Source of the DNA: Cyanophora paradoxa CCMP329
Taxonomy: Eukaryota > Plantae > Glaucophyta
Reading direction: 5' to 3'
NCBI GenBank assembly: GCA_004431415.1
Contig: QPMI01000408.1
Span: forward strand, 62,001 to 126,000
DNA: 64,000 nt
Every line of letters starts with the position of its first letter. Within the stretch, counting starts at the first letter, position 1. Below are positions 8,566-59,255 of this stretch, in pieces. The position numbers and the translations under genes are program-made. The notes beneath the pieces are model-generated. The model was not told the origin of the DNA. It saw only the letters and a program-made list of their open reading frames with translations, and did no database searches.

Positions 8566-8574
8566 CCTTATTAT

Positions 8575-29135: not shown

Positions 29136-29165
29136 AAAAAGAAGTTTGCAGCGAACCTCCAAACA

Positions 29166-29456: not shown

Positions 29457-29554
29457 TACAATATCACTTTATTATTAATCATAATCACAATCTTTTTAAG
29501 GCATATTCACGCGATATCCACCAAAAACTTTTTATGTGTGTGACAATTAGAAGA

Positions 29555-30481
29555 ATGTACACGATAACAGCTCCACCGGGTGTCTGGCAAATTGATGTAT
29601 TATTTATTGGTAGGTATCGTCTGTTTGCAGCGGTCGAGATTGCAACCCGTTTCGCTATCGTGCGAAAAATAGAAACATTCAAACAACTTCCAAAAATGAT
29701 CGCGGAGCTACCAGGGATCTGGGGTTTCTCCGCCGACAACGGTTTTAACACAGCAGCAATTCGGGCAATGGCCGAAGAGAACTCGTTGAAAATGCACACT
29801 GATGTTACCAAAGATGACCACATTTCTAAAGGTAACAAACTTGGAATTATTGACAGGTTCGCTAGGACATTGCGAGCACTTATCCGAGCTGACACAGAAG
29901 CACGCGGATCACCACATTTCCTCTCACGCTTGCCTGCGATTTTGAAGGCGTACAATGAAACAGCACACAATGCATTTGGTGAAGAGCGATCACCAACGTG
30001 GATGCGTGAAAAAACACAGGTTGCCGAGCAGCTACATCAAGTTCGACAGCGACAGAACGATATTGAACGAGAGAACACAAATATGCCTAAACCAGGTTCG
30101 GAGGTGCAGATCCTTGAGCCTAAGCCAAGCGTGTTTGCAAAGGGTCTGGCGAAACCAAGCAAAGAGACCTACGTTGTTGCTGGCGTTGATAAGAACCGTG
30201 TTAGGTTAATTACAAAGCAAGGTGTGGAAATTTCTAGACGTGTTAAACCATCCGAGATTCGTGCGCCACAAGAACTACCTGACCAGTCTAAGATTGAAAG
30301 AGCGACTGCTAGATCGAAGCAAGATCGTCAGCTTCGGAGAGAGGGTCTCGTTGAAACGAAAACGTATGCGGGTCAAAACCGGAAGGATCGTGAGTTAAAA
30401 AAACTCGAAATTGCTGCTGAACCATTGCTCAGAGCAGGCGCCAAACCCGCTGGATATTACGCAAAGAGAATTCGAAGGTAG
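29555..30481 (+). CDS. rve integrase (A2)
   Basis: Close homolog of 7663-8565 starting MYTITAPPG, with a different C-terminal tail. Confidence 0.88.
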   Translation: MYTITAPPGVWQIDVLFIGRYRLFAAVEIATRFAIVRKIETFKQLPKMIAELPGIWGFSADNGFNTAAIRAMAEENSLKMHTDVTKDDHISKGNKLGIIDRFARTLRALIRADTEARGSPHFLSRLPAILKAYNETAHNAFGEERSPTWMREKTQVAEQLHQVRQRQNDIERENTNMPKPGSEVQILEPKPSVFAKGLAKPSKETYVVAGVDKNRVRLITKQGVEISRRVKPSEIRAPQELPDQSKIERATARSKQDRQLRREGLVETKTYAGQNRKDRELKKLEIAAEPLLRAGAKPAGYYAKRIRR

Positions 30482-31653: not shown

Positions 31654-32723
31654 TTAGAAGTTACTTACTTTTAGAGTCGACATTTGATATGAATTAATTA
31701 CGAGAACGTTGTGGCGCAGGACGTGAAAATCGACTACAGCTGGTGCGGTGTTTGTACATCCGGTGACAGTGAGGGAGCAGTAGCTGCTGCTTGAGTTGAA
31801 GAAGTCTGTGTAGCCGAGGACAGCGTTGTGGAGGGAGTCTTTGCCAGATTTCGAAAGCACAATACCATAGACATTTCCGTCTTCAAAACCAAGGGCTGAA
31901 TTACCAGTTGTTGCTCCGCGATATTGAGTTGGGATATGATAGCAGCTCGAAACAAATCCAGAGATTGGCTTATTACTGATATCGAGAGTGCGATTATTGT
32001 GCATGATCTCAAACGAATCAATCTTCAAAGCGTTACCGTTACCGGCAAATGAATTATGATTGCGAGTGCCCAGGTGATTCGCATTACGCACTGTCATCAG
32101 GATCGCGTGCACAAGGCCGCTAACGTTAGCAAGGGATATTTCGACAGCGTTTCCTGCGTCGTCCGTCTTAAGCTGGCGTGAGCGCTTTGAAATGATTTCA
32201 GTAAAGGGAATTCTAATACCGCCAGACTCGTTCGCAGATTTTAGCATAGACTCTGCCTCTTCGCTAGGAATATTCACGAACTGACAAACCAGGGCACAAT
32301 CCGTTAGAGTCGCAATAGCATCAGCAACAGTTCCAATCACACCAGCCGAACGGAAGTCAATCTCGACGGTTGGCATATCCGCAAGTGCTAGCAGAGGGAA
32401 ATATGAATTGTCCCAAAGCTGTGATGGGATCTTCAGCACGTACTCTCGGCTAGCATCGAGAATCTCTAGAGCTGCGTCTTTTCCAAAGCCGTAGCTGCTA
32501 GCAAAAGCTTGGGCGGATGCGACGCTGTTATCAATCAGTGCGTTCACTGTAAGCCAATCACCGGGAATTACCATTTTGAAAGATCCATGAACAAAGCGTA
32601 CGTTTTCAATAAATGCACCAGCACCATTAGGAAGAACCGAAGCGGCAGCTCCACCAGCGACTGTTACCTTAAAATATAGGGAGACGCCATTTAGAAGTTG
32701 CTTGCGCGGAAGGTCGAAAGCAG
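31654..32723 (-). pseudogene. A2 major capsid gene, 3' part (disrupted by B)
   Basis: With 50697-50861, minus the 5-bp TSD, it reconstitutes exactly the 1230-bp MCP gene. Confidence 0.93.
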
Positions 32724-33128
32724 AGCTCAGCACTGCGCCGTGTCTCCAAAAAAATACCCGCGAAAAAAATCAAAAACAAATCAGAAAACAAACCATTCCC
32801 AGTAACCCAATCTTGAATATCAGTAAATCTCAGTAAGCCTCAGTAACCAAAATTGAATTAATCGAAGTTATATCATAATCTCGATTAATTATATCTTATC
32901 GAAGTTATATCTTTTTTATGCGCCGTGTCTCCAAAACAATTCCCAAGAAAAACAAACCATTCCCAGTAACCCTATTCGTATTCAACAGTAATCTCAGTAA
33001 GCCTCAGTAACAAAAATCGAATTAATCGAAGTTATATCTTAAATCTTATTTATCGAAGTTATATCATAATCTCGATTAATTATATTTAATCGAAGTTATA
33101 TCCTTTTTATCCGCCAAGTCTCCCATGA
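32724..33128 (+). repeat. B left TIR
   Basis: Inverted copy of 50292-50696; two ~185-bp internal units with GAAGTTATATC and CAGTAA iterations. Confidence 0.93.
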
Positions 33129-33129
33129 A

Positions 33130-34191
33130 TTAGCGTTTGGTTAAACCACTTCTCAAATTGTATCTTCTCCTTACAACATTACTTCGATTGGGTTTTATGC
33201 CTTCCTTTGCTACCAATCGATTCACTTTATTCGTTTTATTAACCTGCTGAATTCGTTTTTGTGATGGGATCTTAATGATATCATCTTTATTCACCTTTTG
33301 CAATTCTTGTTTCTTAAATCTCCTCTTCACTTCTTTTGTTTCCTCACCATCATTATCTTCAAGGACTTTGAAACGATTCCTATCAGCCTTTGCAACAGTG
33401 TAGACCTTTTGACTGAATTGCGCACCTTCTTTTTCAAATAATCCCTTTGGTTGCAAAACTCGAACTGTGTCTCCTGGTTTCACTTGATTAGTATCAGCCT
33501 CCTTTACACGATTGTTGTGAACAGTATCCCTCATGTAAATAAATAACTGTTTATCTTCATTTGTATACACTGCATTCGGTGAGTCATTTTTCAATGCCGA
33601 ATGGGGACTGCTATTATACAAGTCAATTACATCACTAAGTAGATCGATCCATTTCGTGGTTCCTTTTGCTGTCATCGTTTTCCTGAGATATTGTTTGAAA
33701 GTCCTAGTGAACCTATCAATTATCCCCAGTTTATCTCCTACTGTGATGTGGTCATCCTTTGCCACATCTGTGTAAAGCATTACACCATGTTCACTGCACC
33801 AATTTCGGTATACTGCCTGGGAAAACTCATTATCCCCAGAGAGAGCATTAACTTTGCCTGCATCTTGCTTGAACCTATTTAAAATGCTCGGGATCTCACT
33901 GCTGTTTTTAAAAGGATAAACAAATCCTTTGCGACTAAGTATGTCTACGAAACTGAGCATTTTGAAAATGCCATTGTTGGCAGTCTGAAACCCTCTGAAA
34001 TATGTTATATCGATTTGAAACGATCTAGGCTTTGCTACTATGCGAAGAAACGATTTGGGTTTCCTTGGTTTCTTGTAGATTTGCTGGAGTTCTGAGTTTT
34101 TGAATTTCTTTTTCAACTCTTTTTCATCAAAACTCACTTTTTCATTAATCAGTTTCTGCCTATACTTTTTGAATGATAATACACTATCCAT
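33130..34191 (-). CDS. rve integrase (B)
   Basis: FQIDI, SGDNE, GIIDRFTRTFK, YNSSPHSAL. Confidence 0.9.
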   Translation of the reverse strand: MDSVLSFKKYRQKLINEKVSFDEKELKKKFKNSELQQIYKKPRKPKSFLRIVAKPRSFQIDITYFRGFQTANNGIFKMLSFVDILSRKGFVYPFKNSSEIPSILNRFKQDAGKVNALSGDNEFSQAVYRNWCSEHGVMLYTDVAKDDHITVGDKLGIIDRFTRTFKQYLRKTMTAKGTTKWIDLLSDVIDLYNSSPHSALKNDSPNAVYTNEDKQLFIYMRDTVHNNRVKEADTNQVKPGDTVRVLQPKGLFEKEGAQFSQKVYTVAKADRNRFKVLEDNDGEETKEVKRRFKKQELQKVNKDDIIKIPSQKRIQQVNKTNKVNRLVAKEGIKPNRSNVVRRRYNLRSGLTKR

Positions 34192-37100
34192 TATTGGGCG
34201 GCACAGTTACACTTAATATGAGAGAGGAAACAATTTTTGGTAATGTGAGCCACAGCATTATTAATTCGATCTACCGAAATATCTTCAAAGTCCATGGCAT
34301 TGTAGCATCGCAGGCAATGCCCATACTGCTTCCCATATCGCTGCTTGATCCAATCCCATGTGATGTAATCATGCTCATCGAATTGTCTGTTTGCTGCTCG
34401 GTCCTGATCCTTGTAAGTCGATATTTTCTCGTTATTCTCTCTCTTCCACACCTTCCAGTGAGCCATTTCGAAATTATCATGGTAAATAACGACATCATCC
34501 AGCCTTGTGGTTCGTGTGAGAGCAACATAGAGCCACTTCTTTGACACAAATGGCGCCCCCGTTTCGAACACAACTACCCTGTTCCCTTTGCAGCGAATCG
34601 TATCACCTTGAACAACATGGCAGGTGTTTGCATAAGCCAGGGCGAAATGTTTGACTGCATCCCTGCTGAGAACAATCTCATCCTTCTTGTTGGCAATGTC
34701 AGCAATTATGAAACTGTCCTTTGAGAGCTTGACAATCTTGTAGACAAATCCATTATGAACTATTTTTCCACCCTTTGCAATACGAGTCTTTGCAACAACT
34801 TTGATGCCGCCAGCATAAATGGAAACATTATCCCCGTAGTTCATTTTGTGAAGGGCTAGGTTCACCTCTGCACCCTTGCGGTTTGTGTAAACAATGCCAA
34901 TATCAGTCTTTTCCAATTCGTCCACAACCTTGAACCCATACTTTGTGAGGACCTCACTTACACTCAAACCTTTCTCGAATAAATCAATTCGAATTTGCTC
35001 GACCTTCCTGCGATCTTCCTCAGTCTCATGTCGCTTGTTCACTTGGAGTAACAATTCGTTGGGGAACAGGCGATGGAGAATATCGAGGTAATACTCATCT
35101 TGGTCAACACTCATATCTTGGATGGGTGGGTTTTGGTACGGGTCCCCTGTGGCGATGTATACCTTATCTGGGAACTGCTCATTCATGATGTGGTCCAAGG
35201 CTGCCAGTTCCCCAATCTTAAACTGACAGATCTCATCAATAACAATGCAATCAAATTCCACCAAACCAGAGGCATTTCCTCCCACAATTTCATCCATGTT
35301 CGACTCATCGATTTTGAGATGAAGGGCATCATAGATTGTCTTCACATTTTTCAATCCTTGCTCTTTCATTTCTTTCACTCGCTTGTTGGTTGGAACAATA
35401 TAGAGGGGATTTTGGAAACACTTTCCTCCATATTCAACTGTCATGTAAGTCTTTCCAACTCCCGGAACTGCTCCGAGAAGAACCCATCGTTTTTGTGTAG
35501 CCAGCAAATCACAAATCGCGGTTGTGTCATACTCATCAACCACAGAGTGTTTGGTATAACTGTAGTTCTCGATTTTCACAAAGTCAGTCGCTCTCTCAAA
35601 CTTTCCGTAACGAATTCGTTTTGCCTCGAGGTCTTTCTTCTCACCTGAAAACTTTTTAGAAAAATTGGGGCAGCATTTCACACTGAATTTTCCAATATTC
35701 TCAAAGGCATTGCGATCGAATGACATTGGGGCAATGGGTTCGTAAGCGATCCCATAAACACAATCGGTGTTCAAAGCAAGTGGTCGGATTTGCTGTTTAG
35801 CGAGTTCGACACACTTCTCATACATACACATCCTCATAATTGACAAGAGGGTAGTGTACAATGGCATGAAGCCATCAATGAGCTGCTTTTCTGCTACCTG
35901 ATTGACATAGTAGATATGGGGTTCGGTCATCTCTTCCTCACACAGAACGAACTCTGTCTCCTCATAAGTGGCAAGAGTCTCACCAAAGAGGTAAATCTTA
36001 ACCTCCCCTCCATTCTGTTTCTGGAACTCGATCGCATCGTCTCTGTTGTGGAAAATGGTGGTTTTCACTCTGCTATTTCTTTGCTTTCCAGTTTGCCCAA
36101 TCGCACTCACTAAGATCTGCTTCTTATCAACAGGATCGAGGTCGCTATCTAAGATTCGAGCAACTGTGTTGCCTGCAAGGTTGGGAATGAGTTTGTAAGG
36201 TCGCAGAACCGCTTTGATGGAGATGTCATCCTTGAAATCCTCGAAATGCTTTTTGAGAACCAAACCAGGAACGACATTGTACTTGGAATCAATGATCATC
36301 CTCTTGTATCTGTTGTAGGTGTTTGCTTCGTACTCCTTTCCGTTCTTGTCTTTGGCTTTGAAAAAGTATTTGTCGTCCAGTTTCACGTAATAGAAGCTGT
36401 ATTCCTCGATTTGCTCTGCATATGTGATTGTCACACTCTTGAAGACATCGAACTTGCTGAGAACAGGAACGAATTTGATCATCAAGGCTACAATGTAAGG
36501 GTATGCTTTGCACATATCGAACTCGTAAATATCTGTGTTAAAGCGAATTTCATCAAAGGTTTCCTCATCCACATCAAAGAGACCACGAAGGGCAGTCTGC
36601 ACACCATTCTTGAAAGCATTTACGGTCTGTTCATTGTAAGTACTCTTGTTGGAAGTGTTGATTAGAGACCTATACATATCCAGATTCAGCTTCTCGAATT
36701 TATCTCTGTACTCAGCATTCTTGAAGCTAATCTCGAAGGCTGTTTCCACATCTGTATCGTTACCAGGTGGGGTCACGACAACATCCTTATCGTCAATAGT
36801 GAAACGAATATGGGTTGCCTTTCCGATTACCTGATAATTATGCACCACAATGAACTCTCTGAGAAGTTCATCCAGTGAACCACCATAGCAGATTCGAATG
36901 CTCGATTGGTTCTTTGGATTGTCAGACCTGACAATTCTCAGAATGTCGTCTGGATTTGTGGCAAACTTCTTGAACCTTCTTTGCTTTATAATTTTGTAAC
37001 GAGAACTGAGTGGAACATTGGTATCTTTTGGCTTGGAGCCATTGAAGGACTGTGTGAGAGCCTTAATATTGTGATTTAACAAATACATGTGACCATTCTC

Positions 37101-38276
37101 AATCTTCACATATGCAACAGAAGGGGTCAAGTGTGTGTTCCTGGTCTTGGGCAGGAAAGTCAGTTCAGGGACAGGGGTCCTGTCGTCCTTTCCAATTGTA
37201 ACCATGCCTAGGCGCAGTGGGTCAAGAACCTTCTCCGAAATGGACTTGAAAGAAATGCCCCAATCATCTCCTTCAACAGGGTCTCGCCCATTCACCATCT
37301 TAAAGAGTCCGTTGTAAGACCAATCGATGCGCTTGTATTTCCCTTTGGTCTTAGCCTTCTCAAATGCTCCTCCAAACCATTTGATGAGGACATCAAAGAC
37401 ACACTTCCCAACCTTGAATGAGTCTCCTTTCAAGAACATTTCCTTGAATGTGGTGGCTTGGGGGTTCCCTTCGTTTTTAATGAAATTCGAAATAATCATG
37501 GGAGCGTTTGTATTGTCTCTGAGGACTTGTTCATTTCTGGGGATGTATTCTTCATTATCTGTGGTGATGACTCTTTCGATTGTCATAATATCGGGGTAGG
37601 TATCTTGCTCGATTAGTTTTAGGTAGCGGAAATCTTGATTGTTTGAGTTAAACTCGATGACTGCTGCAATAAATTCAGCGATGACAGTCCCCTCGACGCA
37701 TGGGAACGTATTGAAGGTGGATTGAACCAGAGCAAGAGCGTTCAGAAAAGCTGCCTTGGTACACTGGATACCGAAGGGGCGATTGTTCCGAAGCCTCTTT
37801 GATTCAATGTAGGTCACGCCATTCTCAGTGACCCTATTTGCATTTGCAGGGGCTTGATCGCCCTCTTGCAACTCACGGAAGAGTCTCACATTCAGAGTGA
37901 CCATGTTTCCAGGTGAGTATTCAACAAACTCGCGAAGGTTAGCCATCATCTGCTGGAAAGGAGTCAAGCGCTTCCGCTCCTGTGCTTCGGCTGCTTTCTT
38001 GTTCTGCTTCTCAACATTCTTAGCGGCTCTCTCAGCCCTCTTCGCCTTCTTTTCTTGCTTGCGGACCACACGAGGATTGATGATACCATTGAGAGTATCG
38101 CGAATATCAATCAATGATTGCAAGCGGAGCCTGCGGTTAATTGTCCTTTCCAAAAAGTAGTTCACTTGCTCTTCATTGAGAATTCCATGGACACTACCCT
38201 GGGTGATGTAACCAATGATCTCTTCTCTTATCTTATTCGCTATTCTGTTTCCAGGGCGAGGCATTTCTTTGTTCAC
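34191..38276 (-). CDS. PolB-like domain fused to an SF1 helicase and a C-terminal HNH-like domain (1361 aa)
   Basis: FDMCKAYP / KQILVSAIG / NTDC (PolB motifs A/B/C-like); GAVPGVGKT, VIDE, GDPYQ, TCHVVQG, YVALTR (SF1); CxxC...SVDRINN..AH...N...CN. Confidence 0.85.
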   Translation of the reverse strand: MNKEMPRPGNRIANKIREEIIGYITQGSVHGILNEEQVNYFLERTINRRLRLQSLIDIRDTLNGIINPRVVRKQEKKAKRAERAAKNVEKQNKKAAEAQERKRLTPFQQMMANLREFVEYSPGNMVTLNVRLFRELQEGDQAPANANRVTENGVTYIESKRLRNNRPFGIQCTKAAFLNALALVQSTFNTFPCVEGTVIAEFIAAVIEFNSNNQDFRYLKLIEQDTYPDIMTIERVITTDNEEYIPRNEQVLRDNTNAPMIISNFIKNEGNPQATTFKEMFLKGDSFKVGKCVFDVLIKWFGGAFEKAKTKGKYKRIDWSYNGLFKMVNGRDPVEGDDWGISFKSISEKVLDPLRLGMVTIGKDDRTPVPELTFLPKTRNTHLTPSVAYVKIENGHMYLLNHNIKALTQSFNGSKPKDTNVPLSSRYKIIKQRRFKKFATNPDDILRIVRSDNPKNQSSIRICYGGSLDELLREFIVVHNYQVIGKATHIRFTIDDKDVVVTPPGNDTDVETAFEISFKNAEYRDKFEKLNLDMYRSLINTSNKSTYNEQTVNAFKNGVQTALRGLFDVDEETFDEIRFNTDIYEFDMCKAYPYIVALMIKFVPVLSKFDVFKSVTITYAEQIEEYSFYYVKLDDKYFFKAKDKNGKEYEANTYNRYKRMIIDSKYNVVPGLVLKKHFEDFKDDISIKAVLRPYKLIPNLAGNTVARILDSDLDPVDKKQILVSAIGQTGKQRNSRVKTTIFHNRDDAIEFQKQNGGEVKIYLFGETLATYEETEFVLCEEEMTEPHIYYVNQVAEKQLIDGFMPLYTTLLSIMRMCMYEKCVELAKQQIRPLALNTDCVYGIAYEPIAPMSFDRNAFENIGKFSVKCCPNFSKKFSGEKKDLEAKRIRYGKFERATDFVKIENYSYTKHSVVDEYDTTAICDLLATQKRWVLLGAVPGVGKTYMTVEYGGKCFQNPLYIVPTNKRVKEMKEQGLKNVKTIYDALHLKIDESNMDEIVGGNASGLVEFDCIVIDEICQFKIGELAALDHIMNEQFPDKVYIATGDPYQNPPIQDMSVDQDEYYLDILHRLFPNELLLQVNKRHETEEDRRKVEQIRIDLFEKGLSVSEVLTKYGFKVVDELEKTDIGIVYTNRKGAEVNLALHKMNYGDNVSIYAGGIKVVAKTRIAKGGKIVHNGFVYKIVKLSKDSFIIADIANKKDEIVLSRDAVKHFALAYANTCHVVQGDTIRCKGNRVVVFETGAPFVSKKWLYVALTRTTRLDDVVIYHDNFEMAHWKVWKRENNEKISTYKDQDRAANRQFDEHDYITWDWIKQRYGKQYGHCLRCYNAMDFEDISVDRINNAVAHITKNCFLSHIKCNCAAQ

Positions 38277-38505
38277 TCTATTAATATATACCTACAAAAG
38301 TTTTCTTTAAATACTTTTATACTCACGTCAAATTTTACCGGCAAAACCAAAAGTCTCCAACAAAATAAATTTAGTCGAGGGCATTCATAAAAATAACAAA
38401 GGGTTGGCTCGATCATCGAACTCTAAAAATAACAGAATGATTTTATTTGTGGTTCCAGCGCGGTTCCCGCGGGATTCTCAGAGCAGATCGCGCTGAGAAA
38501 AACGA

Positions 38506-38763
38506 TTAACAGACATATTTCGATTTGCGACCACGGTTAGAGTAGGGGACACCATAGAGATACTTAACAAAGCAGACTGCATTGGAAGCATAGAGACGCT
38601 GGGAACTCTCAACGATTCTCATGGCTCTGTAACACTCATCAGTATGGTATAAATCACGCATTTGCTTTGCGAATTTCGCATTATACTTTTTTAAATATTC
38701 CTGACCTTTTTCAGTTTTACGATAACGGTAAGTAGCACGCTTCTGAGCCTCACTGATTGGCAT
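38506..38763 (-). CDS. Small basic protein
   Basis: ATG-initiated 85-aa ORF (SEAQKRA.Y.Y start) in AT-rich context; loosely analogous to the family A basic proteins. Confidence 0.55.
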   Translation of the reverse strand: MPISEAQKRATYRYRKTEKGQEYLKKYNAKFAKQMRDLYHTDECYRAMRIVESSQRLYASNAVCFVKYLYGVPYSNRGRKSKYVC

Positions 38764-39116
38764 TTTGTCCTTTTCTACTCTCTTAATATATGTTAAGAAA
38801 TCTTTAAGTAGTTTTTCTGTCTGTATATAGCGAATAAAATCCTGTCAAATTTTGGTCCCACACTGATTGCAGAGCATCCAGTTCGAAAGAAGATGCTGGA
38901 AAAATGATAAAGCCACCGATACCCAAAAAGGTTCACTTGTCGGCTGCAAGTTTCTACCACTGAACCCGGTAGAACAGGTGATTAAAGTGATATCTGTGGA
39001 TAATTCACTTCGCTCTACAACGCCTCCATAAAAATGAAGAAGTTTTGAGCCTACGGGATAGGATTGGTTACGTAGCGCTACCTATGTTTGAGAAATTATA
39101 TTATTCACATTGATCC

Positions 39117-39866
39117 TTAACGGCGATATCCAGGTTTAATACCGAGCTTGGCAAACCCTGAGACCATTGGGGCAGCATTTGGAATCGAGTTGACTGGATC
39201 AGCCTGCGAAGTAGCAACCCGGAGGATCGATTTATTGAGGACCGGCAAATCCGTTTTGTTGGAGTCTTGATAATCGATGGTCTTTGCAATCAATTCGGCT
39301 GGTGATTCTTTTGCAACATGAACAGGTTCAGGGATGACTTCATGGGTTACTTCTGGTTTCTTCTCAACCTTTTCCTTTGTGATTGGCTGTTCCTTGATCT
39401 TGTTTTCGTTTTTGGTCTCTGCTGCAATGCCATCAACAAGACTTTTAGCATACTGGTATGTCACAGATTTCAGTCCACCAGTGGTTGAACGAATAAAGTA
39501 GCGGTTGCGATGGTCTTTCTCGGAATAGGTTGAGTAGAGTCGCTCACCACCATCAAGCAGTTTCAGCAGTGTTGATGATGAGGCAACCTTGTCCTTTGTC
39601 GATGATTTGAACTGTCCTTTCTTGATTCCTCGTTTGGCTCCAGGCATGCGGTTCAGTGGGACTTGGTCAACCAGGGCATTATCATCATTAGAATTTGAAG
39701 TAAGCGCAATTGTGTGAGCATTCATGGTCTGGTGAACATTTTTATCGAGATCACCAGTTCCATATGCAGCGGTTCCTTTTGATTTCTTAAACTGTTTCCG
39801 TTCTGGTTCCGCTTGCTCAACTGGTTTGGCTAAGAAATTCTTTGGCTGGGTCTTTCGAGTTGCCAT
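39117..39866 (-). CDS. Lys-rich candidate core protein (B)
   Basis: Shares RYFI....GLK, GIA.ETK.ENKI, SILR.A.S.ADPV and PM.SGF.KLG with 2975-3607. Confidence 0.75.
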   Translation of the reverse strand: MATRKTQPKNFLAKPVEQAEPERKQFKKSKGTAAYGTGDLDKNVHQTMNAHTIALTSNSNDDNALVDQVPLNRMPGAKRGIKKGQFKSSTKDKVASSSTLLKLLDGGERLYSTYSEKDHRNRYFIRSTTGGLKSVTYQYAKSLVDGIAAETKNENKIKEQPITKEKVEKKPEVTHEVIPEPVHVAKESPAELIAKTIDYQDSNKTDLPVLNKSILRVATSQADPVNSIPNAAPMVSGFAKLGIKPGYRR

Positions 39867-39902
39867 TTGTAATATCGAGACAAATTTATTCTACAGTATT
39901 TC

Positions 39903-40802
39903 CTATGACCGTGAGAACGGCAAGTAGAGTCCCTCCAACTCTTTAATGACATTCTTCAATGCTTTCTTTGTCAGATCTTTATCATCTTCCGTAATGAGTT
40001 CGAGAGTCATCGACCAATCAGTGGTAATATCCGTTTCGGCACCATTCCAGTATGTGAGACGAACTTTTAGCGTTTCAACTTCCACCAAACCGTTTTGCTC
40101 ATGCAGGATCATGGAATTATTCGATGAATCGTATTTAAGCAGACTGCCTACCGTTTGATCAATCTCGATTTTCGCAAGGGCTTTATCATCGCTTGTGTTC
40201 TTGCTTACATAGTTGCCTTTGAGTGGATCGACATGTAGAAGGATGTAAGAGTTGAACAGAAGATCGAGCGGTATAACACTGTCAATGTAGTAATTATAAG
40301 TATTAGTTCCGACTGTTACAGGTGAATCCAGCAGGGCAGAAGCGTAACCATTTTCTGAACTGTCAGGCCTGCGCTCTGGAAACCCAAGGAAGTTTGCTAA
40401 GATCCGACTTCCGAAGGTGAGGGTAAATGTTGCATCGCACATGAACCTTAGAAACATGGTAACAGGATCATATGTAACGTAGAAATGGCGAGTATAGGTA
40501 GTTCCTGCTGCACCATACACTTGTGAAGCTAGTTTGGCATTTAGAAGATTCACCAAACTATCCGAAGTATATGTCCCTTTCGAAATAGTGTTATTCTTAG
40601 TTTTAATTACATCTCCAGCATCATAGGTTCCTGTAATCAAACTTCCATTCTCGCTAAGATTGTAAATGTTATTGAACATCTCAAAGTTAGTCACTCTGCA
40701 GGCTCTCACATTTTGGATTGCATGGGGAATTTTGTAAGTAAAGTTCGTTGGGGTTCCATCATCTCGGTCCCTGGAATCAATATTAAGGTAATGACGCGTC
40801 AT
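39903..40802 (-). CDS. Putative minor capsid protein (B)
   Basis: IDSRDRD..TP.NF; aligns with 3678-4553. Confidence 0.75.
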   Translation of the reverse strand: MTRHYLNIDSRDRDDGTPTNFTYKIPHAIQNVRACRVTNFEMFNNIYNLSENGSLITGTYDAGDVIKTKNNTISKGTYTSDSLVNLLNAKLASQVYGAAGTTYTRHFYVTYDPVTMFLRFMCDATFTLTFGSRILANFLGFPERRPDSSENGYASALLDSPVTVGTNTYNYYIDSVIPLDLLFNSYILLHVDPLKGNYVSKNTSDDKALAKIEIDQTVGSLLKYDSSNNSMILHEQNGLVEVETLKVRLTYWNGAETDITTDWSMTLELITEDDKDLTKKALKNVIKELEGLYLPFSRS

Positions 40803-40854
40803 TCTGTTTAATAAAGCATTTTAAAAATTTCTTTTGGTATTTTAAACATAAGAG

Positions 40855-42081
40855 ATGGCACTCACTGGAACTACCCTTAAGGAACTCCTCGTAACTCCCG
40901 GTTCCGATCAAATTTATCTATCCCCTGGTCTCCAAATCGGAACCAACCCCAAGTACAAACCATTCCTCGAGCAAGTTCGTCCCCGAGGCAATACTTTTGG
41001 CTTTAAGAATACCGCTTACTTCGATCTACCTCGCAAACAACTCCTTGCTGGTGTTTCGCTCTATTTCAAGATTGCCACTGGTGGTGGTGTAGCCTGCACC
41101 CTCCCTAATGGTGGTTCTTCCTTTATTAATGAGGTTCGCTTTGTTCATGGTGGTTTCAAGTATATCATCCCTGGTGACTGGATTACTGTTAACGCTCTGA
41201 TTGATAATGATCATGCTACCATGAGCAGCATGTATGCTTCTCTTGGTTACTTCAAAGAACTTGATCGTGAAAGCACAGATGAGGCTATGGAATACATTGT
41301 TAAAATCCCCGCTGCTTTCTGGGATGATGCTTACTTCCCACTATGCACACTGGCGGATATGCCAACAATTGAGGTTGATTTCCGTGATGCTGGGATAGTC
41401 AAAGTTCCTGCTGGTGGATCTGTTACATTTGCAGATTGCTCCCTGATCTGTCAATTTGTAAACATCGCTTCGGCTGAGGCTGAGACACTTTTGAAAATGG
41501 CAAATGAACAAGGTGGCATTCGCATTCCGATCACAGAGGTCATCCACAAGAAGACACGAGCGCTCAAAACCGCTGATGCTGGTGAATCGGTTGAGGTGAC
41601 ACTCGCTAATGTTTCTGGTCTGGTTCATTCGATTCTCATGACAGTTCGAGAGGTGAACAAACTTAACACCTACACTCACTCTGATTTCTGTGGTCATGTT
41701 TCGGATGTTAAGATCGATCAGTTCCAGATCTTCCACAACAATCGCTCCCTGGATATCTCCAACAAACCCATTTCTGGTTTCCTCTCGGCTATCAATCACA
41801 TTCCTTCTCATTACAAGGGTGTTACTGTTGGCAATACTACTTATGGATTCGAGAATGGAAATATTTACGGAATCGTTCTTTCCAAATCTGGAAAAGATTC
41901 GCTTCGGAACTCGGTTATGGGTTACCAGGATTTCTTCAACAGCAGCTCGAGTTACATGGATCTCACTGTTTCGGGATGCACTGATGCCGCTCCTGTTCAG
42001 GTTGACATCTATGCCCTCCGACACAATGTTATGGTCCTCAATGGCTACAACATCTCTACCCTGAAAGTCTCGAACTTCTAA
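40855..42081 (+). CDS. Putative major capsid protein (B)
   Basis: Aligns end to end with the A MCP (GTTLKELL...STLKVSNF). Confidence 0.8.
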   Translation: MALTGTTLKELLVTPGSDQIYLSPGLQIGTNPKYKPFLEQVRPRGNTFGFKNTAYFDLPRKQLLAGVSLYFKIATGGGVACTLPNGGSSFINEVRFVHGGFKYIIPGDWITVNALIDNDHATMSSMYASLGYFKELDRESTDEAMEYIVKIPAAFWDDAYFPLCTLADMPTIEVDFRDAGIVKVPAGGSVTFADCSLICQFVNIASAEAETLLKMANEQGGIRIPITEVIHKKTRALKTADAGESVEVTLANVSGLVHSILMTVREVNKLNTYTHSDFCGHVSDVKIDQFQIFHNNRSLDISNKPISGFLSAINHIPSHYKGVTVGNTTYGFENGNIYGIVLSKSGKDSLRNSVMGYQDFFNSSSSYMDLTVSGCTDAAPVQVDIYALRHNVMVLNGYNISTLKVSNF

Positions 42082-42162
42082 AGTTCTTTTCTTTTGTAAG
42101 AGTAGGAAGCGCAAAAATTAAGTAGGTGAGTAGTTTATTTTGTTTTTTATCTTATTACTGTA

Positions 42163-42921
42163 ATGGATAACACAGTAAATCTAGATGATATACCGGAGTT
42201 TCATCCGAGCAAAACAGTTCGAATCCCAACGAGAATTTTGAATGTTGGTCGCTCCAATACAGGTAAGACAATGTTCACAAAATACTTACTTTACGAGCTT
42301 CGTGACAAGATCGATCAGATCGTTATATTTAGTTCAACAGCTTTTACTGGGCAATTTAATGACATCACCCATCCCGATAACATCTATGAGGAGTGGGATG
42401 ATAACATTGTTTTGAGATTGATCAGTATGCAAAAGAAACGAATCGAGAACAATGAGAAACGCAATAATCTAGTAATTATACTTGATGATATGATAGGTTC
42501 AAATTTGGATATGCATAATTCGGCTGTTTTATCTAAATTGGTCACGAGTGGAAGACATTATTCAATCTCGGTGATATTTAATGTTCAGCGTTTATGCTCA
42601 ATTTCTACTACCATTCGTCGCAATGTGGAATTCGTTGTATTTTTTAATATTCTTGGGAACGAAAAGGAATTCAACTGCGCTTTTGATGAGTATAATGGTG
42701 GTATGGATAAGAAGACCTACAAGGAATTGCATAGACTATGGGGTTACAATTACCAAACTGTCATAGCTAGCCTGCAAGGTTATGATATCAAGACCTATAC
42801 TGATCGAGCAGTACTCACTGATGATGATATAAAGGGCTTTAAGAAGTTTGTGAAGAGAAAAGCAATTAAAAGGAGTCAGATGGCTCGGATTCAGCGAGAA
42901 ATGACCACAATTAGTGTGTGA
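42163..42921 (+). CDS. A32-like packaging ATPase (B)
   Basis: GRSNTGKT, IILDD, GRHYSIS. Confidence 0.92.
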   Translation: MDNTVNLDDIPEFHPSKTVRIPTRILNVGRSNTGKTMFTKYLLYELRDKIDQIVIFSSTAFTGQFNDITHPDNIYEEWDDNIVLRLISMQKKRIENNEKRNNLVIILDDMIGSNLDMHNSAVLSKLVTSGRHYSISVIFNVQRLCSISTTIRRNVEFVVFFNILGNEKEFNCAFDEYNGGMDKKTYKELHRLWGYNYQTVIASLQGYDIKTYTDRAVLTDDDIKGFKKFVKRKAIKRSQMARIQREMTTISV

Positions 42922-43164
42922 AAAGTCGATTTTTGAGAAATGTTGTATGGTAAGGTAGCTCAGATAAATACGGCGTCTAGTTCTTTGTGTAGAGCTTTAA
43001 TAGCGCTTCAAAACGCTATGCAAAACGTTGCGAGTTGACCATCTGGTGGTGAGATACAAGCGTTTGAAGATGCCGATAATCGATTTACCGAAACTTCGGT
43101 GAAACGTGAGCGAAACTTGAACCTTGTGAGATCATATACCCTACTATGGTTTATTCCCCGGGTT

Positions 43165-43392
43165 TTCATGGCGCATTTAATGGCTCATTTTATGGCGCAT
43201 TTTATGGCGCATTTTATGGCGCATTTAATGGCGCATTTTATGAAAATTCACTACTCTGTGGCATGGGCCAACGGGAATCGAGCAAAAACAATAATTTATT
43301 TAAAACTTTTATATCACATTATATCTCACATAGAATCTCACATATAATATCACATTTTATCTCACATTTAATATCACATTTTATCTCACATC
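43165..43392. repeat. Two 12-bp tandem arrays, (ATGGCGCATTTW)n and (ATMTCACATWWW)n
   Basis: About 5 and 7 copies, directly visible. Confidence 0.85.
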
Positions 43393-43639
43393 GAAACCTG
43401 GGGAGAAGTTGAAGGGGGATACATTGAAAGTCAGTGAGCCAATCAAATTGCGTCACACATATATATACATATACATCATGACAATATACACATCGCCGTG
43501 ATCGTCATGATCTCCCGAGTCACGTGGTGTGTCATATATATATCATCATGACGTCATATATATATCTCACATATACACAAATTGATATGTTGTAGGTATG
43601 ACCAGAAATCGATTATCTATCATATATATCATATATACT

Positions 43640-43989
43640 GGACCTTCTCATTTACCCAGCTACTATAGCTAGGAAACTCCGACCCGTCACGGAGTCGCTA
43701 GCTACCTATTGTTAAGTCCAGCTAAACCGTTCGCAACTCAGCAATTTCGGCGATCCCGGATCTATTCCGCCCGAGGCAAATTCGATCTAAGGCCCGCCGA
43801 GTGTTGAGAACCCGGATTCTGAAGTTTCACAGGGGTGCTCTATCTTATATGCATGTATATAAAGGCGTAGGAACATGCGCGGAGTCTGTGCGCGCCCTGG
43901 GCGATGGGCCCCGGCCCGGCGACCCGGGCGATCTAGCGGGGGAGCTTAATTTGGTGGTCGCGTCCACCCTAATTTGGGGGCTAGCCGCC
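43640..43989 (+). repeat. 350-bp direct repeat, copy 1
   Basis: Near-identical to 46063-46411. Confidence 0.95.
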
Positions 43990-45289
43990 ACGGATTTCGG
44001 TATAATTCGGCGAAATTACGCTTAAAAGCGTCGAAATAAAGCTTAAAAACGTTAATTTTGGCCATAATAAGTAATTATTCGACTCGAAATTAAGAATTGA
44101 CCCAAGATTTTAACCGCGGATTGCCCCCCCCTGCGGGCAACAGCCTGCAGTTCCCGGCCGCCAGGGTTGGGCTTGTATGACTGTTGGCCACACCGAAATT
44201 TCCATCGGGCGCTTGATTGCCGCCCAGCAGGCATCTAATCTATCACGAATTCACTGTTTCTAATGTCGGGAAACGTCTTCCTGTGTGCCAGCAAGCGGAT
44301 CAAATTGCTGCTGCCTGCGTGCAGGTGCATCGCTTGCCGGCGCATCCGCGCGCCGCGCTGCTCTGCGTGGCGGCGCCGCGGCCGGCGGCATGCTGTCCAA
44401 TGCTCTCGAGCGTCGCAGCAGACCCGAGAGACTCCAAAATCCGCTCGCGCCAGCCCAAAACCGGGTCCCCAGCGACACTGGCCCCCTCGCACCCCGTCCA
44501 ATCAGCCAAAAAAGCCCGAGCGCAACACCCATAGAAAGACACACCTTGGGGCTCGTGCATCATCAAAGCAGGGCCACTGCGCGCACGCGCGCTGCTGCGC
44601 TTCGAATCCTGAAGTTAGAAGAGCATTGATATGGAAAGATGATATGAGAACGAGCTTATGTAATTTGAAGCCTAAATTGGCATGGGGCGTGCGAGAGCAG
44701 TTATACTAGATTGTGGCGCCGGCTGGCCAGCGCTCGGAAATGCAGGGGCCGGGGGCAGGGCCCGCAGGGGGGCGTGCGCATGCGCACCTGGGCGTTGAAG
44801 TTGGCGAAGGCCGGCTTGGCGGTGTCCGACTTATCGACCAGAACGAGCTCTGGGGCGCGCACGCTCCTTCATTTCTCCCTCTACCCCTTCGGAGGGTGGG
44901 GGTACACGGACCGACGACGAGGCCCGTGTTGAGCTTCCGCGAGAAGCCCCTGCGGAGGATTTTACCAGAAGGAGAGAACTCTACAGCGGGTACAACGTGC
45001 ACAAATTACCGTACCCCTCCGCGTCGTACCCCTCCAGCGGGGCGTCGTTGTGCTCGCACGCTGCGACCTCGTCCTCTCCTTGTCCTTGTGCTCGCACGCT
45101 GCGCCGCCGCCACCTGCGCGCTGCCCAGCTCAGCTCAGAAGCTCAGATCGGATCAGCTCAGATCAGATCTGACGGGTGGCGCGCCTGGGCGACGAGATCG
45201 CCGGCGAAGAGCAGCTGGCCCGCCCGCTCGCCCGCCCGCACGAGGTACGTCTGCAGCTCGCCGGCCCCTGCGCCCGCGTCAGCGCCGGC

Positions 45290-45480
45290 GGGGCGGGGCC
45301 GGGCGGGGCAGGCAGGGGCGGGGCGGGCGGGGCAGGCAGGGGCGGGCGGGGCGGGGCGGCGGGCGGGCCGGAGCGGGGCGGGCCGGAGCGGGGCCGGGCT
45401 GGACGGGGAGGGGCGGGGCGGGGGGCGAGGCGAGGGGGGCCGGGCAGGGCGGGGCGGGGCGGGGCGGGCGGGGCGGGGCG
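45290..45480 (+). repeat. GGGGC-type G-rich microsatellite
   Basis: Repeated G3-4C units; a poly-G run follows near 45755-45775. Confidence 0.85.
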
Positions 45481-46062
45481 GACCGAAGCCGTTGTGGGGG
45501 CGGAGGGCGACGCCGGCGCGCTCGAAGGCGATGCCGCGGACGTCCAGGGCGGCCTCGACGGCGAGCCGCGCCGCGTCCCGCAGTGCCGCCGAGCACGAAA
45601 TAATCGGGCGCCCCAGGGGCGTCGGCGCTGGGCGTCGGCGCCGCTCGGCGCCGGTATTCCGCCCGCGAGGCCTGCTGCGGGGTGCAGGATCAATCAGGAT
45701 TATTCGACTAGGTAACGGGGGCGGGGATGCGGCGGGGTTGGTGGGAAGGAAGAGGGGGGGGGGGGGGGGGGGGGAAGGCGAGGAGCGCGGCGGGGGGCTT
45801 GAGGATGGGCAAGGGGCGCGGCGAACCGGTGGGGCCCGCGGGGGGCATCAGAGCCGGGGCGCGGGGGGCCGCGGAGGGAGCAGGGCGCGGGGAGCGCACG
45901 CATCGGGGGACGGCGTGCGGGCGTGGAGCGCGCGCACGGGGACAAGGGGCGCGGGGGGACGGGCGCTGCGGAACTGGAACTGCAGCTGCAGTGGCCGCCG
46001 CGAGCCTGCGCGCAAGTCCTGCGGTTAGTCGTTGGATTTCAATGATTTATGTATGGAAAATA

Positions 46063-46411
46063 GGACCTTCTCATTTACCCAGCTACTATAGCTAGGAAAC
46101 TCCGACCCGTCACGGAGTCGCTAGCTACCTATTGTTAAGTCCAGCTAAACCGTTCGCAACTCAGCAATTTCGGCGATCCCGGATCTATTCCGCCCGAGGC
46201 AAATTCGATCTAAGGCCCGCCGAGTGTTGAGAACCCGGATTCTGAAGTTTCACAGGGGTGCTCTATCTTATATGCATGTATATAAAGGCGTAGGAACATG
46301 CGCGGAGTCTGTGCGCGCCCTGGGCGATGGGCCCCGGCCCGGCGACCCGGGCGATCTAGCGGGGAGCTTAATTTGGTGGTCGCGTCCACCCTAATTTGGG
46401 GGCTAGCCGCC
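46063..46411 (+). repeat. 350-bp direct repeat, copy 2
   Basis: Near-identical to 43640-43989. Confidence 0.95.
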
Positions 46412-47740
46412 CGCTAGTTCACGCTAGTGATACAATCAGATCAGCGTTCGCGCACCCTTGGGAAACGACAGAGGACGGACATGCTTCGGCGGCATCTGTG
46501 CAAAATTAAGCAGCAGAATAGGGTCACAAAGCATCCGAGCACACTGCGGCACGTGTGAGAGGAGCTATGGCCGATGCCGCGGGTCAATCAAGCGTGCTCC
46601 GGAATACTTGGCGGCGGGTGGTTCTCCGAAGCAGGAGAGCCACTACGAGCGTTCTATCTCTCTGGCTCACGGTAACTGGCTCGCGGCACCAGTCCTGGCT
46701 CGCAGGACATGAGGGCGGCGCATCGGCCCGCGGCGCATCGGTGCCTGCGCATTCGGGTGTTCAGGAGATGCGAGCTCGAGGGCGACGCCAGCCTTGATGG
46801 TGCAACGGACCGCCAACGCTTCCGCGGTACGTCGGTCGCTTCGGTCGCTGCTCCAGTCGGTCGCGGACTGCTGTTCATCTGCTCTGGTCGCTGTCGCTGG
46901 TGCTCCACGGCGGTGGCTTCGCGCTGTGCCCGCGAAGCGCTCGCGAACGGGGGTACACATTTGATGTGACGACAAGTACCCCCCCACTATTCAACGACTC
47001 TCAAAGCCGGCTCCCTCAGGGGCTGTTATGCTGCTGCTCAGCTCTATGTGACCGACCCTGCACCACAGCGATTGCTCGCGGTCGCTCGCGGTCGCTCGCA
47101 GCTCGCGCGTCGGCGTTCGCTCGCGGTCGCTCGCAGCTCGCAGCTGATCATGAGAGGCGGCGTATTGACGACTTCGGCTGCGGCTACAGCGTGCGTCAGC
47201 TCAAAGCTCTGCCGGCTTATCGAGCCATTGCGCGCCCCGCGGCCGCGCGAGACTATCTAGATCTCGTACGCTCGGAGCTCGTGGTGCGCGAGCCTCTCTA
47301 GATCTAGCTATAGATCTCGCGCGGTGCGCGGGCCTCTCTCGTACGCTCGCGGTGCGCCGTCGCACCGGGTGCGCCGTACGCGTCGCCTCGGGTGCGCGTT
47401 GCAAGCTCAGGTACCGGTTAGTCTCGACGGCCCGCGCCGCGGCGAGCACGCACCTAACTTTCGGTACAAGAACAGGTTAACACAGCTAACACGAACGGGC
47501 CGGGCGCTCCATTCTCTCACTCCCATCTCGGTTCATGATCATGATCATGCAAATGGCGTGTTCCCTCGCTCGCGGAGGCGCTCGCTGGGGCGTTCGGGCT
47601 CTTTATTTTGTATGTTGTACATATACATGGAAGGATAACTAAAGCGCCTTCGCCGCCGTGCACGTGGCGCCAAGCCGCCACGCCCGGGCACGTGCACGGC
47701 GGCGTCGCAAGGAGGACTGACCGGCGCTTCGTTGAGGTCT

Positions 47741-49040
47741 AGAAGTCAGCGACACAAGGCCGGGGCGGGCGGCGATCGTGATCGAGACGGGGCGCGCACC
47801 GCGCGAGGCCGAGGCGGGGTGGAGGAGCTTGGGCGGGGCGTTCGGCGCAAGGGGACCCGCAGAGAGCCCGCGACGCTGCGCAGAGAAGTCAGCGACACGA
47901 GGCCGGGGCGGGGCCCGGGGGGCGGGCTTCGAGACGGGGCGCGCACCGCGCGAGGCCGAGGCGGGGTGGAGGAGCTTGGGCGGGGCGTTCGGCGCAAGGG
48001 GACCCGCAGAGAGCCCGCGCGCGACGCTGCGCAGAGAACTCAGCGACACGAGGCCGGGGCGGGGCCCGGGGGCGGGATCCAAGGCGGGGCGCGCACTGCG
48101 CGAGGCCGAGGCGGGGCGGGAGGAGCTTGGGCGGGGCGTTCGGCGCAAGGGGACCCGCAGAGAGCCCGCGACGCTGCGCAGAGAAGTCAGCGACACAAGG
48201 CCGGGGCGGGGCCCGGGGGGCGGGCTTCGAGGCGGGGCGTGCACCGCGCGAGGCCGAGGCGGGGCGGGAGGAGCTTGCGCGGGGCGCTCCGCTCACGGGG
48301 ACCCGCAGAGAGCTCGCGACGCTGCGCAGAGAAGTCAGCGACACAAGGCCGGGGCGGGGCCCGGGGGCGGGCTTCGAGGCGGGGCGCGCACCGCGCGAGG
48401 CCGAGGCGGGGTGGAGGAGCTTGGGCGGGGCGTTCGGCGCAAGGGGACCCGCAGAGAGCCCGCGACGCTGCGCAGAGAAGTCAGCGACACGAGGCCGGGG
48501 CGGGGCCCGGGGGCGGGATCCAAGGCGGGGCGCGCACTGCGCGAGGCCGAGGCGGGGCGGGAGGAGCTTGGGCGGGGCGTTCGGCGCAAGGGGACCCGCA
48601 GAGAGCCCGCGACGCTGCGCAGAGAAGTCAGCGACACGAGGCCGGGGCGGGGCCCGGGGGGCGGGCTTCGAGGCGGGGCGTGCACCGCGCGAGGCCGAGG
48701 CGGGGTGGAGGAGCTTGGGCGGGGCGTTCGGCGCAAGGGGACCCGCAGAGAGCCCGCGCGCGACGCTGCGCAGAGAACTCAGCGACACGAGGCCGGGGCG
48801 GGGCCCGGGGGCGGGATCCAAGGCGGGGCGCGCACTGCGCGAGGCCGAGGCGGGGCGGGAGGAGCTTGGGCGGGGCGTTCGGCGCAAGGGGACCCGCAGA
48901 GAGCCCGCGACGCTGCGCAGAGAAGTCAGCGACACAAGGCCGGGGCGGGGCCCGGGGGGCGGGCTTCGAGGCGAGGCGGGGCCCGGGGGGCGGGCTTCGA
49001 GGCGGGCTTCGAGGCGGGGCCCGGGGGGCGGGCTTCGAGG
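47741..49040. repeat. GC-rich ~147-bp minisatellite, ~8.5 copies
   Basis: AGAA(G/C)TCAGCGACAC recurs at 47741, 47884, 48035, 48182, 48330, 48476, 48623, 48774 and 48921. Confidence 0.93.
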
Positions 49041-50291
49041 CGTGGCCTGCGTGCGGCAAAGGGGCGTACACGCACCGCGGTATACGCAGAAGCTCCGCCG
49101 CGCCCGGCGGCCGCAGCTTCAGGCTCGCCTTGCAAGCGCCAGGCGAGGACAGCCACGGGCTGTGCAAGGCCGTCAGCGAGGCGGTGCGCCGGGGCAGCGC
49201 AAGGAGGCAGACTCTGAGAGCGATGGGGCATGGAAGGGACGCGCACGCATTGCGGGACAGGTGCCGCCGTGCCGCTGTTTGAGGCTCGCGAGGGCCGAGC
49301 GCACGGGCCGGTGTGGCGGGCACCGGTTGTTCAGGGTCCAGCGGGGTCACCAGCACACGCATAGCTAGCTAAAAGCAACGTTCGATCCATTCTGCACTTC
49401 GCCAGACCTCGGACTGCGACGGCGAGCCAGACGAATGAGGTCAACATCGAGCGGATGAGGCGGCGGGCGGTGAGCAGGCAGTCTGCCAGCACGAGAGCAC
49501 CTGCAGCACGTGTACCAGCACGAAAGCACCGTTCTGGCCTGAAAGTGCCGTCGCATCGGGGCATCTGCATGCTCGTACGGCATCCGCCCGGGCTGTGGCT
49601 GAGGTTCGGCAACCTTCTACTGAGCTCTCTGAAAGGAACCGACGCTGAATCTTGCGGACCCGCGAACTCCGGGGAGTCGTTGGCGTAGTAGCCGTTGCTG
49701 GCCGACGACGGCGAGCTGACAGACCACATTCGGGCCGCAGGCGTGCACCGTGGCACTAGAAGAACTGCAGCCGCCTGTTGGCGGCCTGCTGGCGCGCGGC
49801 AGCTACGTTCAGGCCGCAGGAGGATTGGTACCCTCCCGTCGTTCGTGGGGGGGTAAAGTTACCTGTACCCTTCCTTCGTTCGCAGACGAAAACTCGTCTG
49901 TGCGATTGACTCGCGAACCGTTAGCCAAGCGCTAGCTCGACCCCCTGACCCGTTAGCTGGACTCCAATTGACAGCAATCATTCTTACATTTTTCCTGCCA
50001 GCGAAGGCCACAGAGGTTTCTAGCGACGCCAGTTTATGAGTGCGTCGGGTTTTTTAGCTGCGTCCGCGAGTTTTTTTGGCTAGCTACGGTACAGCCGTAG
50101 GTAAATGAGACGCCTCATTATATTGCAATATTGACGTATTTAGGATTAAAAAGCAATTAAAATTCTATTGTTTTTATTGTCGTTTCTATCGTTGTTTCTA
50201 GTGTAGAAAATACAGTAAAAAACCGTTCAAAAAATACAGTAAAAAATGAGAGGTTTTTCGAACGAGGTTTAAACTGAAATCACTTTGTAAA

Positions 50292-50696
50292 TCATGGGAG
50301 ACACGGCGGATAAAAAGGATATAACTTCGATTAAATATAATTAATCGAGATTATGATATAACTTCGATAAATAAGATTTAAGATATAACTTCGATTAATT
50401 CGATTTTTGTTACTGAGGCTTACTGAGATTACTGTTGAATACGAATAGGGTTACTGGGAATGGTTTGTTTTTCTTGGGAATTGTTTTGGAGACACGGCGC
50501 ATAAAAAAGATATAACTTCGATAAGATATAATTAATCGAGATTATGATATAACTTCGATTAATTCAATTTTGGTTACTGAGGCTTACTGAGATTTACTGA
50601 TATTCAAGATTGGGTTACTGGGAATGGTTTGTTTTCTGATTTGTTTTTGATTTTTTTCGCGGGTATTTTTTTGGAGACACGGCGCAGTGCTGAGCT
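50292..50696 (-). repeat. B right TIR
   Basis: Inverted copy of 32724-33128. Confidence 0.93.
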
Positions 50697-50861
50697 AGCA
50701 GCAGTCTGTGCGAATCCGTATGAGTTGCCTCGCGGACGGATCGTCTCAAGGAAAGGCTTAAACTTTGGGCTAACACCGACAGTTAGACCTGGCGATAGAT
50801 AAAGCTCGTTCGATCCTTTGGTTGTTAGGAGCTCTTTCAGAGTAGTTCCTGCTTGCGCCAT
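50697..50861 (-). pseudogene. A2 major capsid gene, 5' part
   Basis: MAQAGTTLKELL...FAQTAA, then the B TIR. Confidence 0.93.
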
Positions 50862-52484: not shown

Positions 52485-52880
52485 TTAGCGTCTAGCTAGA
52501 ACCTGAACTCGAGTATGTAATTAGATTCCGATGATATAGTAATTACGTGTAGCATAACCCTTGAAACCTCTTTGTTTTTTAGATTCGAAATACACACAAT
52601 TAACGTCTAGATGATGTTGAAGATTATTCCGAGACCGGCGCTTTGGGGGTCCGCCTCAAATCATTGCTATATCTTTTGCAAGATCGATCGGTCTAGACGT
52701 TGGATATTACCTAGCGGTTGCTTGATGGTTGGTTTGGATAGGTTGTGGGGTAGACGTAACGAAGGATTGGAAGAGTGTGTTGGTTGGAAGGCGTTGGAGT
52801 GTGTGGGTTGGGGTGGTTTGGAGGAGTGAGGGTGGTGAAGAGGTGCGGGCCACAGAATCAGGTCCTCTCTCATTTTTTTT
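52453..52880 (-). repeat. A2 right TIR
   Basis: Direct repeat of 63486-63912; ends GGTCCTCTCTCA-T8. Confidence 0.9.
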
Positions 52881-54311: not shown

Positions 54312-54381
54312 TTGTTTTAAATAAGGAACAGAAAAAAGTCGACAGACAAGCTGCCTCGGCTGCGCATTCGCGAAAGTGAAT

Positions 54382-55255: not shown

Positions 55256-55299
55256 CTTTACAACAATATACGTGAAAATATTCTGTAATATAATATCAA

Positions 55300-56529: not shown

Positions 56530-56530
56530 A

Positions 56531-57374: not shown

Positions 57375-57403
57375 CAAAAAGATAAAGGGTGTTATTCCTT
57401 CAA

Positions 57404-59246: not shown

Positions 59247-59255
59247 CCTTATTAT

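Follow-up and report, generated by a model that had tools for sequence, protein, structure and literature searches.

A Polinton-like virus nested in the capsid gene of a related virus in the genome of the glaucophyte Cyanophora paradoxa

Complete viral elements lying inside other viral elements are described for Halocafeteria seosinensis, in which five Polinton-like viruses (PLVs) and nine virophages occupy such positions, one of them doubly nested (bioRxiv 10.64898/2026.07.28.741278). The endogenous mavirus-like elements (EMALEs) of Cafeteria burkhardae integrate without sequence specificity, with target-site duplications (TSDs) of mostly 3-5 bp, and are themselves a preferred target of Ngaro retrotransposons (PMC8547959). 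Polisuviruses integrate in tandem and include genomes in which identical structural modules are joined to different replicases (Barth, Ha, Aylward, bioRxiv 10.64898/2026.10.13.758929). Here we describe a locus in Cyanophora paradoxa CCMP329 (contig QPMI01000408.1, positions 62,001 to 126,000) in which a PLV, element B, interrupts the capsid gene of a related PLV, element A2, one of three A elements (A1, A2 and A3) in the 64,000-nucleotide stretch analysed, hereafter the window.

The capsids of both types are already listed as major capsid proteins (MCPs) of this species in Table S2 of Bellas et al. 2023, the Table S4 of which gives 366 capsid genes in 99.9 Mb and an estimated 7.3% of viral DNA (PMC10120064). 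The main text of that study contains neither the words "nested" and "target site" nor the species name, so the nested locus is not described there. Adintovirus-like proteins were also noted in C. paradoxa (PMC8502044). No report on this locus was found in the literature searched.

Insertion of element B in the A2 capsid gene

Both termini of B are directly flanked by AGCAG, which corresponds to nucleotides 161-165 of the A2 capsid coding sequence (codons 54-55); the probability of a chance 5-bp match exactly at both termini is ∼0.001. Compared separately with the A1 capsid gene, the two A2 pieces are identical at 165/165 nucleotides (5′ piece) and 1067/1070 nucleotides (3′ piece), and with the duplication counted once they add up to 165 + 1070 − 5 = 1230 bp, the length of the intact gene in A1 and A3. 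The empty site, with a single AGCAG, is present in both of these genes. A 6-bp duplication is ruled out for B, the hexanucleotides being AAGCAG on one side and AGCAGC on the other. The nesting of B in the A2 capsid gene is a confirmed, real insertion. The initial annotation of the locus, made from the sequence alone, had proposed a split near codon 55 with an AGCAG duplication and halves that rejoin to exactly 1230 bp, and both points hold.

The 5′ capsid piece runs on for 30 codons into the B terminus before a stop, leaving an 85-amino-acid stub, and the interrupted copy is therefore likely dead. Since the B termini and the A2 capsid pieces are almost unchanged, their sequences suggest that the insertion is likely young. 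The capsid genes of A1 and A3 are intact, match each other at 1227/1230 nucleotides and are no more than ∼27 kb away from the broken gene; that of A3 belongs to the same co-integrated unit as A2.

Element B and the stacked locus

Both A and B are endogenous PLVs of C. paradoxa. The features of a PLV found in B comprise a double jelly-roll MCP, an A32 ATPase, inverted repeats, an integrase associated with a duplication, and a replication protein (Table 1). The A gene set contains the same four-gene structural block as B, together with a family B DNA polymerase of the protein-primed kind (pPolB) and its own integrase. Amino acid identities between B and A are 63% for the capsid, 43% for the ATPase, 38-44% for two more structural-module genes and 29% for the integrase (E 2e-37 against A1), which bears out the proposal that B is a relative of A. 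The related integrases are associated with unlike duplications, of 6 bp for A (at two sites) and 5 bp for B (at one site).

Table 1. Features of the locus, in window coordinates
Feature	Position	Strand	Remarks
Element A1	2548-13256		459-bp inverted termini; 6-bp duplication CCCCGA; intact capsid gene 4598-5827
GC-rich retrotransposon	13263-24145	-	Reverse transcriptase, RNase H, integrase (Ty3/Gypsy-type order); first open reading frame (ORF) interrupted by the A2-A3 pair
GCCGGT, 6-bp duplication around the A2-A3 pair, left copy	24146-24151	+	Right copy 63913-63918
Element A2	24152-52879		Host of B
A2 capsid gene, 3′ piece	31654-32723	-	By comparison with the A1 gene
TSD AGCAG (5 bp), left copy	32719-32723	+	
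Element B, endogenous PLV	32724-50696		∼11.5 kb native plus ∼6.5 kb secondary insert
B left terminal inverted repeat	32724-33132	+	409 bp
B retroviral-type (rve) integrase	33130-34191	-	353 amino acids; Pfam rve_3 E 0.004, below curated cut-off
B replicase	34191-38264	-	1357 amino acids; likely pPolB-type N-terminal part plus superfamily 1 (SF1) helicase; AAA_19 E 3e-8
B small ORF	38506-38763	-	85 amino acids; family not found
B conserved hypothetical protein	39117-39866	-	A homolog, 44% over 130 amino acids
B likely minor capsid protein	39903-40802	-	38% to A homolog; inferred from position and size only
B MCP	40855-42081	+	408 amino acids; predicted double jelly-roll; 63% to A MCP
B A32-type packaging ATPase	42163-42921	+	Pox_A32 E 1.5e-15
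GC-rich secondary insert in B	43640-50113		350-bp direct repeat and 147-bp tandem array; approximate at its right end
B right terminal inverted repeat	50288-50696	-	409 bp; 406/409 identical to left
TSD AGCAG (5 bp), right copy	50697-50701	+	
A2 capsid gene, 5′ piece (codons 1-55)	50697-50861	-	By comparison with the A1 gene
Element A3	52881-63912		End to end with A2; intact capsid gene 55300-56529

The three mismatches between the inverted repeats of B all lie at the inner edge (positions 392, 393 and 405). The predicted model of the B capsid (pLDDT 72.7) matches the PBCV-1 capsid in Foldseek (E 8e-22, TM 0.72), and its Atlas score is 0.98. No relatives of this capsid were found in a search of 5.8 billion proteins or in IMG/VR, and a profile search with it returned four relatives at 22-25% identity; the terminal 24-mer of B has no matches in metagenome contigs, and no RNA data sets were listed as carriers, from which nothing follows for expression. 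The capsid genes of B and of A2 are on opposite strands, and ∼8 kb separate the B gene from the nearer of the two junctions.

The helicase part of the B replicase matches a Dda-like helicase (E 5e-18). The N-terminal part is likely of pPolB type, as suggested by language-model features, which link it with an Atlas score of 0.95 to clusters where DNA_pol_B_2 occurs in 14-45% of the members; a BLASTP comparison of the replicase with the A1 pPolB gave no similarity. At the C-terminus (34191-34350) there is a Cys/His pattern without a Pfam match, which we take to resemble an HNH nuclease motif; the Pfam scan gave no GIY-YIG match in this part. In all four public runs the window copy of B (33130-43000) differs by ∼2% from the majority B, and its replicase has an 18-bp in-frame gap near 36828 relative to that majority; the window copy may represent a minor subfamily.

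The GC-rich insert (GC 0.67 vs 0.41) accounts for ∼6.5 kb of B, which is 18 kb long in all, and this gives a native B of ∼11.5 kb. Its direct repeat copies lie at 43640-43989 and 46063-46411 and its ends are imperfectly inverted; coding capacity was not recognised in it, and its TSD could not be fixed. The insert has a depth of 116 in the public contigs of run X2, far below the ∼900-1000 of B, so most B copies likely lack it.

Mobile DNA is stacked at this locus in five layers, namely the retrotransposon, A1 adjoining it, the A2-A3 pair in its first ORF, B in A2, and the GC-rich insert in B. Outside B, 70.6% of the window is A DNA, and capsid genes make up 11.4% of the A DNA and 8% of the non-B window, while the non-viral DNA has 60-68% GC. 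The reverse transcriptase of the retrotransposon is 100% identical, over the region searched, to a named C. paradoxa protein. A2 and A3 abut with one extra base (52880) and share a single GCCGGT duplication around both. P0127, a natural protein from this retrotransposon's family, continues through the empty A2-A3 site, from which it follows that the pair integrated as one unit; insertion of A3 in the end of A2, or the reverse, is ruled out by the lack of an inner duplication.

A2 is a chimera. Its structural module (30775-52843) is 99.7% identical to that of A1, while in its replication module (25095-30481) the pPolB shares 40-50% and the integrase 88% amino acid identity with A1, and the HNH gene is reduced to a remnant; the sequence indicates a recent swap of the replication module. 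The A pPolB carries an endonuclease VII insert, and A1 has a free HNH-AP2 gene. A2 and A3 have 2.1-kb inverted repeats, and the 476-bp spacer that separates these (52844-53319) appears flipped. As assembled, each of the two elements has unlike ends, and a reversed spacer would give each element matching ends; the flip may be a real inversion or an assembly choice. Frameshifts are present in the A2 ATPase (31409, 31590), the A2 pPolB (25095-29135), the A3 minor capsid candidate (54863) and the A3 pPolB (59256-63382). Those in the A2 ATPase were rejected as proof of decay before the insertion, both being in homopolymers, with the base at 31587 present in four of four runs; the two may be consensus errors.

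Target choice and competing explanations

We consider it probable that B landed in the A2 capsid gene by chance, in an accumulation of mobile DNA that is likely to tolerate insertions, and that it was likely brought there by its own integrase. The joining of element termini to a staggered target cut, followed by duplication during repair, is known chemistry of rve integrases. The B enzyme would have joined both termini to a target cut with a 5-bp stagger, against 6 bp for the A integrase, and with little sequence choice, and repair would then have duplicated AGCAG. An association of rve integrases with TSDs is also documented (PMC12220804). Such an insertion would kill only this one A capsid copy. 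It could persist because the DNA hit is dispensable and lies where insertions accumulate, and the many intact copies could cover any need for A capsid. The capsid gene of B would be there as in every virus of its family, not as a replacement.

With 366 capsid genes in 99.9 Mb as the input (PMC10120064 Table S4), uniform insertion of 366 elements predicts 7-15 virus-in-virus events genome-wide and 0.8-1.6 virus-in-capsid events (P 0.56-0.81). The site also gives no sign of recurrent use. In four of four public runs, what follows the site is uninterrupted capsid sequence, of which there are two empty forms, either or both being listed in a given run. In run X2 the two forms carry 658 + 987 against a shared depth of 1625 and account for all of it, and for both X2 and X8 the depths of the pieces listed add up exactly to that of the bin. 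Nor is the site AT-rich at fine scale, contrary to the AT-rich preference proposed in the initial annotation; the 41 bp around it have 58.5% GC, which ranks at the 96th percentile among A1 windows, and for the 101 bp around it the rank is the 92nd percentile. None of three other B-end flanks matches A, B or retrotransposon DNA of the window within three mismatches, these flanks, of 30 nucleotides each, being a tiny sample that depends on which contigs were recoverable. A second A-type capsid variant branches at 32690-32721 in the public contigs, with a depth similar to or above that of the window type.

Several points weigh against a chance landing. It is a single event at this locus, and chance suffices to explain it only in hindsight, with all elements counted, or where there is regional clustering. 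For B by itself, uniform insertion gives odds of 0.03-0.06 for any A element and 0.003-0.007 for an A capsid gene, on the assumption of 18 B and 30 A-type copies, a rough guess from depth. Contig depth is a rough guide to copy number, the interior of B having 874-1014 in run X2 against 50-57 for unique-flank contigs. The genome-wide figure is the one that applies to a scan which picks up any such event in hindsight, but the low odds for B leave room for a bias. The three other B flanks have 43%, 27% and 57% GC (hand count, 30 nucleotides), so that two of them resemble viral DNA and differ from the 60-68% GC of the non-viral window DNA, and a regional bias therefore retains some weight. In addition, the supplement of PMC10120064 holds an A-type capsid in which a foreign N-terminus replaces the first 26 residues, possibly another disruption of the 5′ part; this N-terminus is not encoded in the window. 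As a further observation, a B end that lacks its first seven bases (32731) occurs with an AT-rich flank on a low-depth public contig of 14,017 bp, and could mark a B copy within some further viral element not seen here.

An integration bias in favour of viral or AT-rich regions in general, through chromatin state, DNA shape or tethering to viral DNA and with the capsid gene irrelevant, would fit the AT-richness of two of the three other flanks, the presence of three A copies plus B within 64 kb and the low uniform odds for B, and it has a precedent in Ngaro retrotransposons, type 1 of which has 91% of its copies in EMALEs (PMC8547959). It is nevertheless rather unlikely, because the B site is itself GC-rich for A, none of the three flanks (a small, contig-dependent sample) is A or B DNA of the window, and the A elements themselves entered DNA of 60-68% GC. 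A broader version, in which B is a hyperparasite of its relatives whose integration is drawn to PLV DNA, whether chromosomal or co-replicating, we regard as unlikely; if true, host genes would be spared, the element landed in would be disabled, and the swapping of replication and capsid modules, as in A2, would be fed. A preference of B for viral DNA, if real, would amount to a virus-on-virus targeting rule and a route to module shuffling across small eukaryotic DNA viruses. It is decidedly unlikely that B entered A2 while both were free and co-replicating, the composite then integrating in the chromosome together with A3. The end-to-end arrangement of A2 and A3 with a shared 6-bp duplication suggests that A molecules were likely joined before integration, the joining of an A1-type structural module to another replication module in A2 implies that genomes met, and the identity of the B termini over the first 392 bp, with A2 capsid pieces only 3/1230 nucleotides off A1, makes both young. 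However, the integration of a 33-40 kb unit, three times the native size, would be required, and the order of events is not fixed by the data, a later chromosomal insertion leaving an identical anatomy.

The initial annotation had read the event as B knocking out a competitor's capsid while supplying its own homolog. One capsid gene is indeed broken, early (at codon 55, with only an 85-codon stub), and B carries an intact one, but the purpose does not follow. Intact A capsid genes adjoin the site and, from rough depth estimates, exist in many copies, so that one disruption removes little and a purposeful knock-out is unsupported; apart from the single event, nothing supports the competition reading. 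Selection of B to strike the capsid gene of a competitor, disabling and replacing it, is thus highly improbable. Recurrence of the site was not seen in public contigs, B has its capsid gene where its family normally has it, 8 kb off and on the opposite strand, and B is likely overloaded by its 6.5-kb insert. The literature searched contains no report of a PLV directing its insertion to a capsid gene; bioRxiv supplements, in which nested capsid-gene cases may be listed, lay outside that search. An assembly artefact of two multi-copy repeats is barely credible. A2 does contain 1-bp homopolymer deletions typical of long-read consensus, and no contig spanning the left junction is among the pieces listed (32 of 57) in the four public runs, so that this junction is documented by the window assembly itself. 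However, public contigs lose rare variants, which makes the missing junction contig no evidence of absence, and a mis-join would not give an exact 5-bp duplication at both exact termini. The insertion of B by chance therefore remains our preferred explanation.

Relation to described systems

Strict Mavericks/Polintons carry a capsid maturation cysteine protease. Virophages of the Mavirus/Sputnik type have a virophage-type capsid and a protease. No protease match was obtained in Pfam or PHROGs among the scanned ORFs of B, where a very divergent one could be missed. Strict Mavericks/Polintons also have a 6-bp TSD (PMC12220804). Assignment of B to the strict Mavericks/Polintons was rejected on its 5-bp duplication and the lack of a protease match, the 6-bp duplication being that of the A elements. 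Assignment to the virophages was rejected likewise, the fold matches listed (20 of at least 500) being capsids whose type is that seen in nucleocytoplasmic large DNA viruses and none of them from virophages, again with no protease match. The replicase of B resembles the Tlr1/transpoviron-type fusions of pPolB with SF1 helicase described in PMC12721341 in having an N-terminal polymerase-like part, a C-terminal SF1 helicase and a length of ∼1400 amino acids; it differs in that its polymerase part is recognised only through language-model features and in the lack of a GIY-YIG match at its C-terminus.

With the EMALEs, the locus shares AT-rich integrated viruses, short TSDs (mostly 3-5 bp in EMALEs), an apparent lack of a sequence-specific site and GC-rich interrupting elements. 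In EMALEs, however, the nested element for which a preference is proven is a retrotransposon (PMC8547959); here the invader is a second virus, for which no preference is shown. The likeness to polisuviruses lies in the tandem arrangement and in nucleotide-identical structural modules with unlike replicases, as in A2 vs A3; sections 12 and 13 of that work describe tandem pairs, not insertion in a capsid gene. Considered together, A and B show relatives that have one capsid module in common, with unlike replicases and an unlike integrase stagger (5 vs 6 bp).

The closest likeness is to Halocafeteria, with complete viral elements inside viral elements, terminal inverted repeats and TSDs, stacked with host transposons; the host belongs to another supergroup, and disruption of a capsid gene is not stated in section 8 of that preprint. 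The nesting in C. paradoxa is a fresh instance of this described phenomenon, between two already catalogued capsid types, and as a chance event it would provide a clean worked example of how these viruses accumulate and degrade in protist DNA, from the rarely studied lineage of the glaucophytes.

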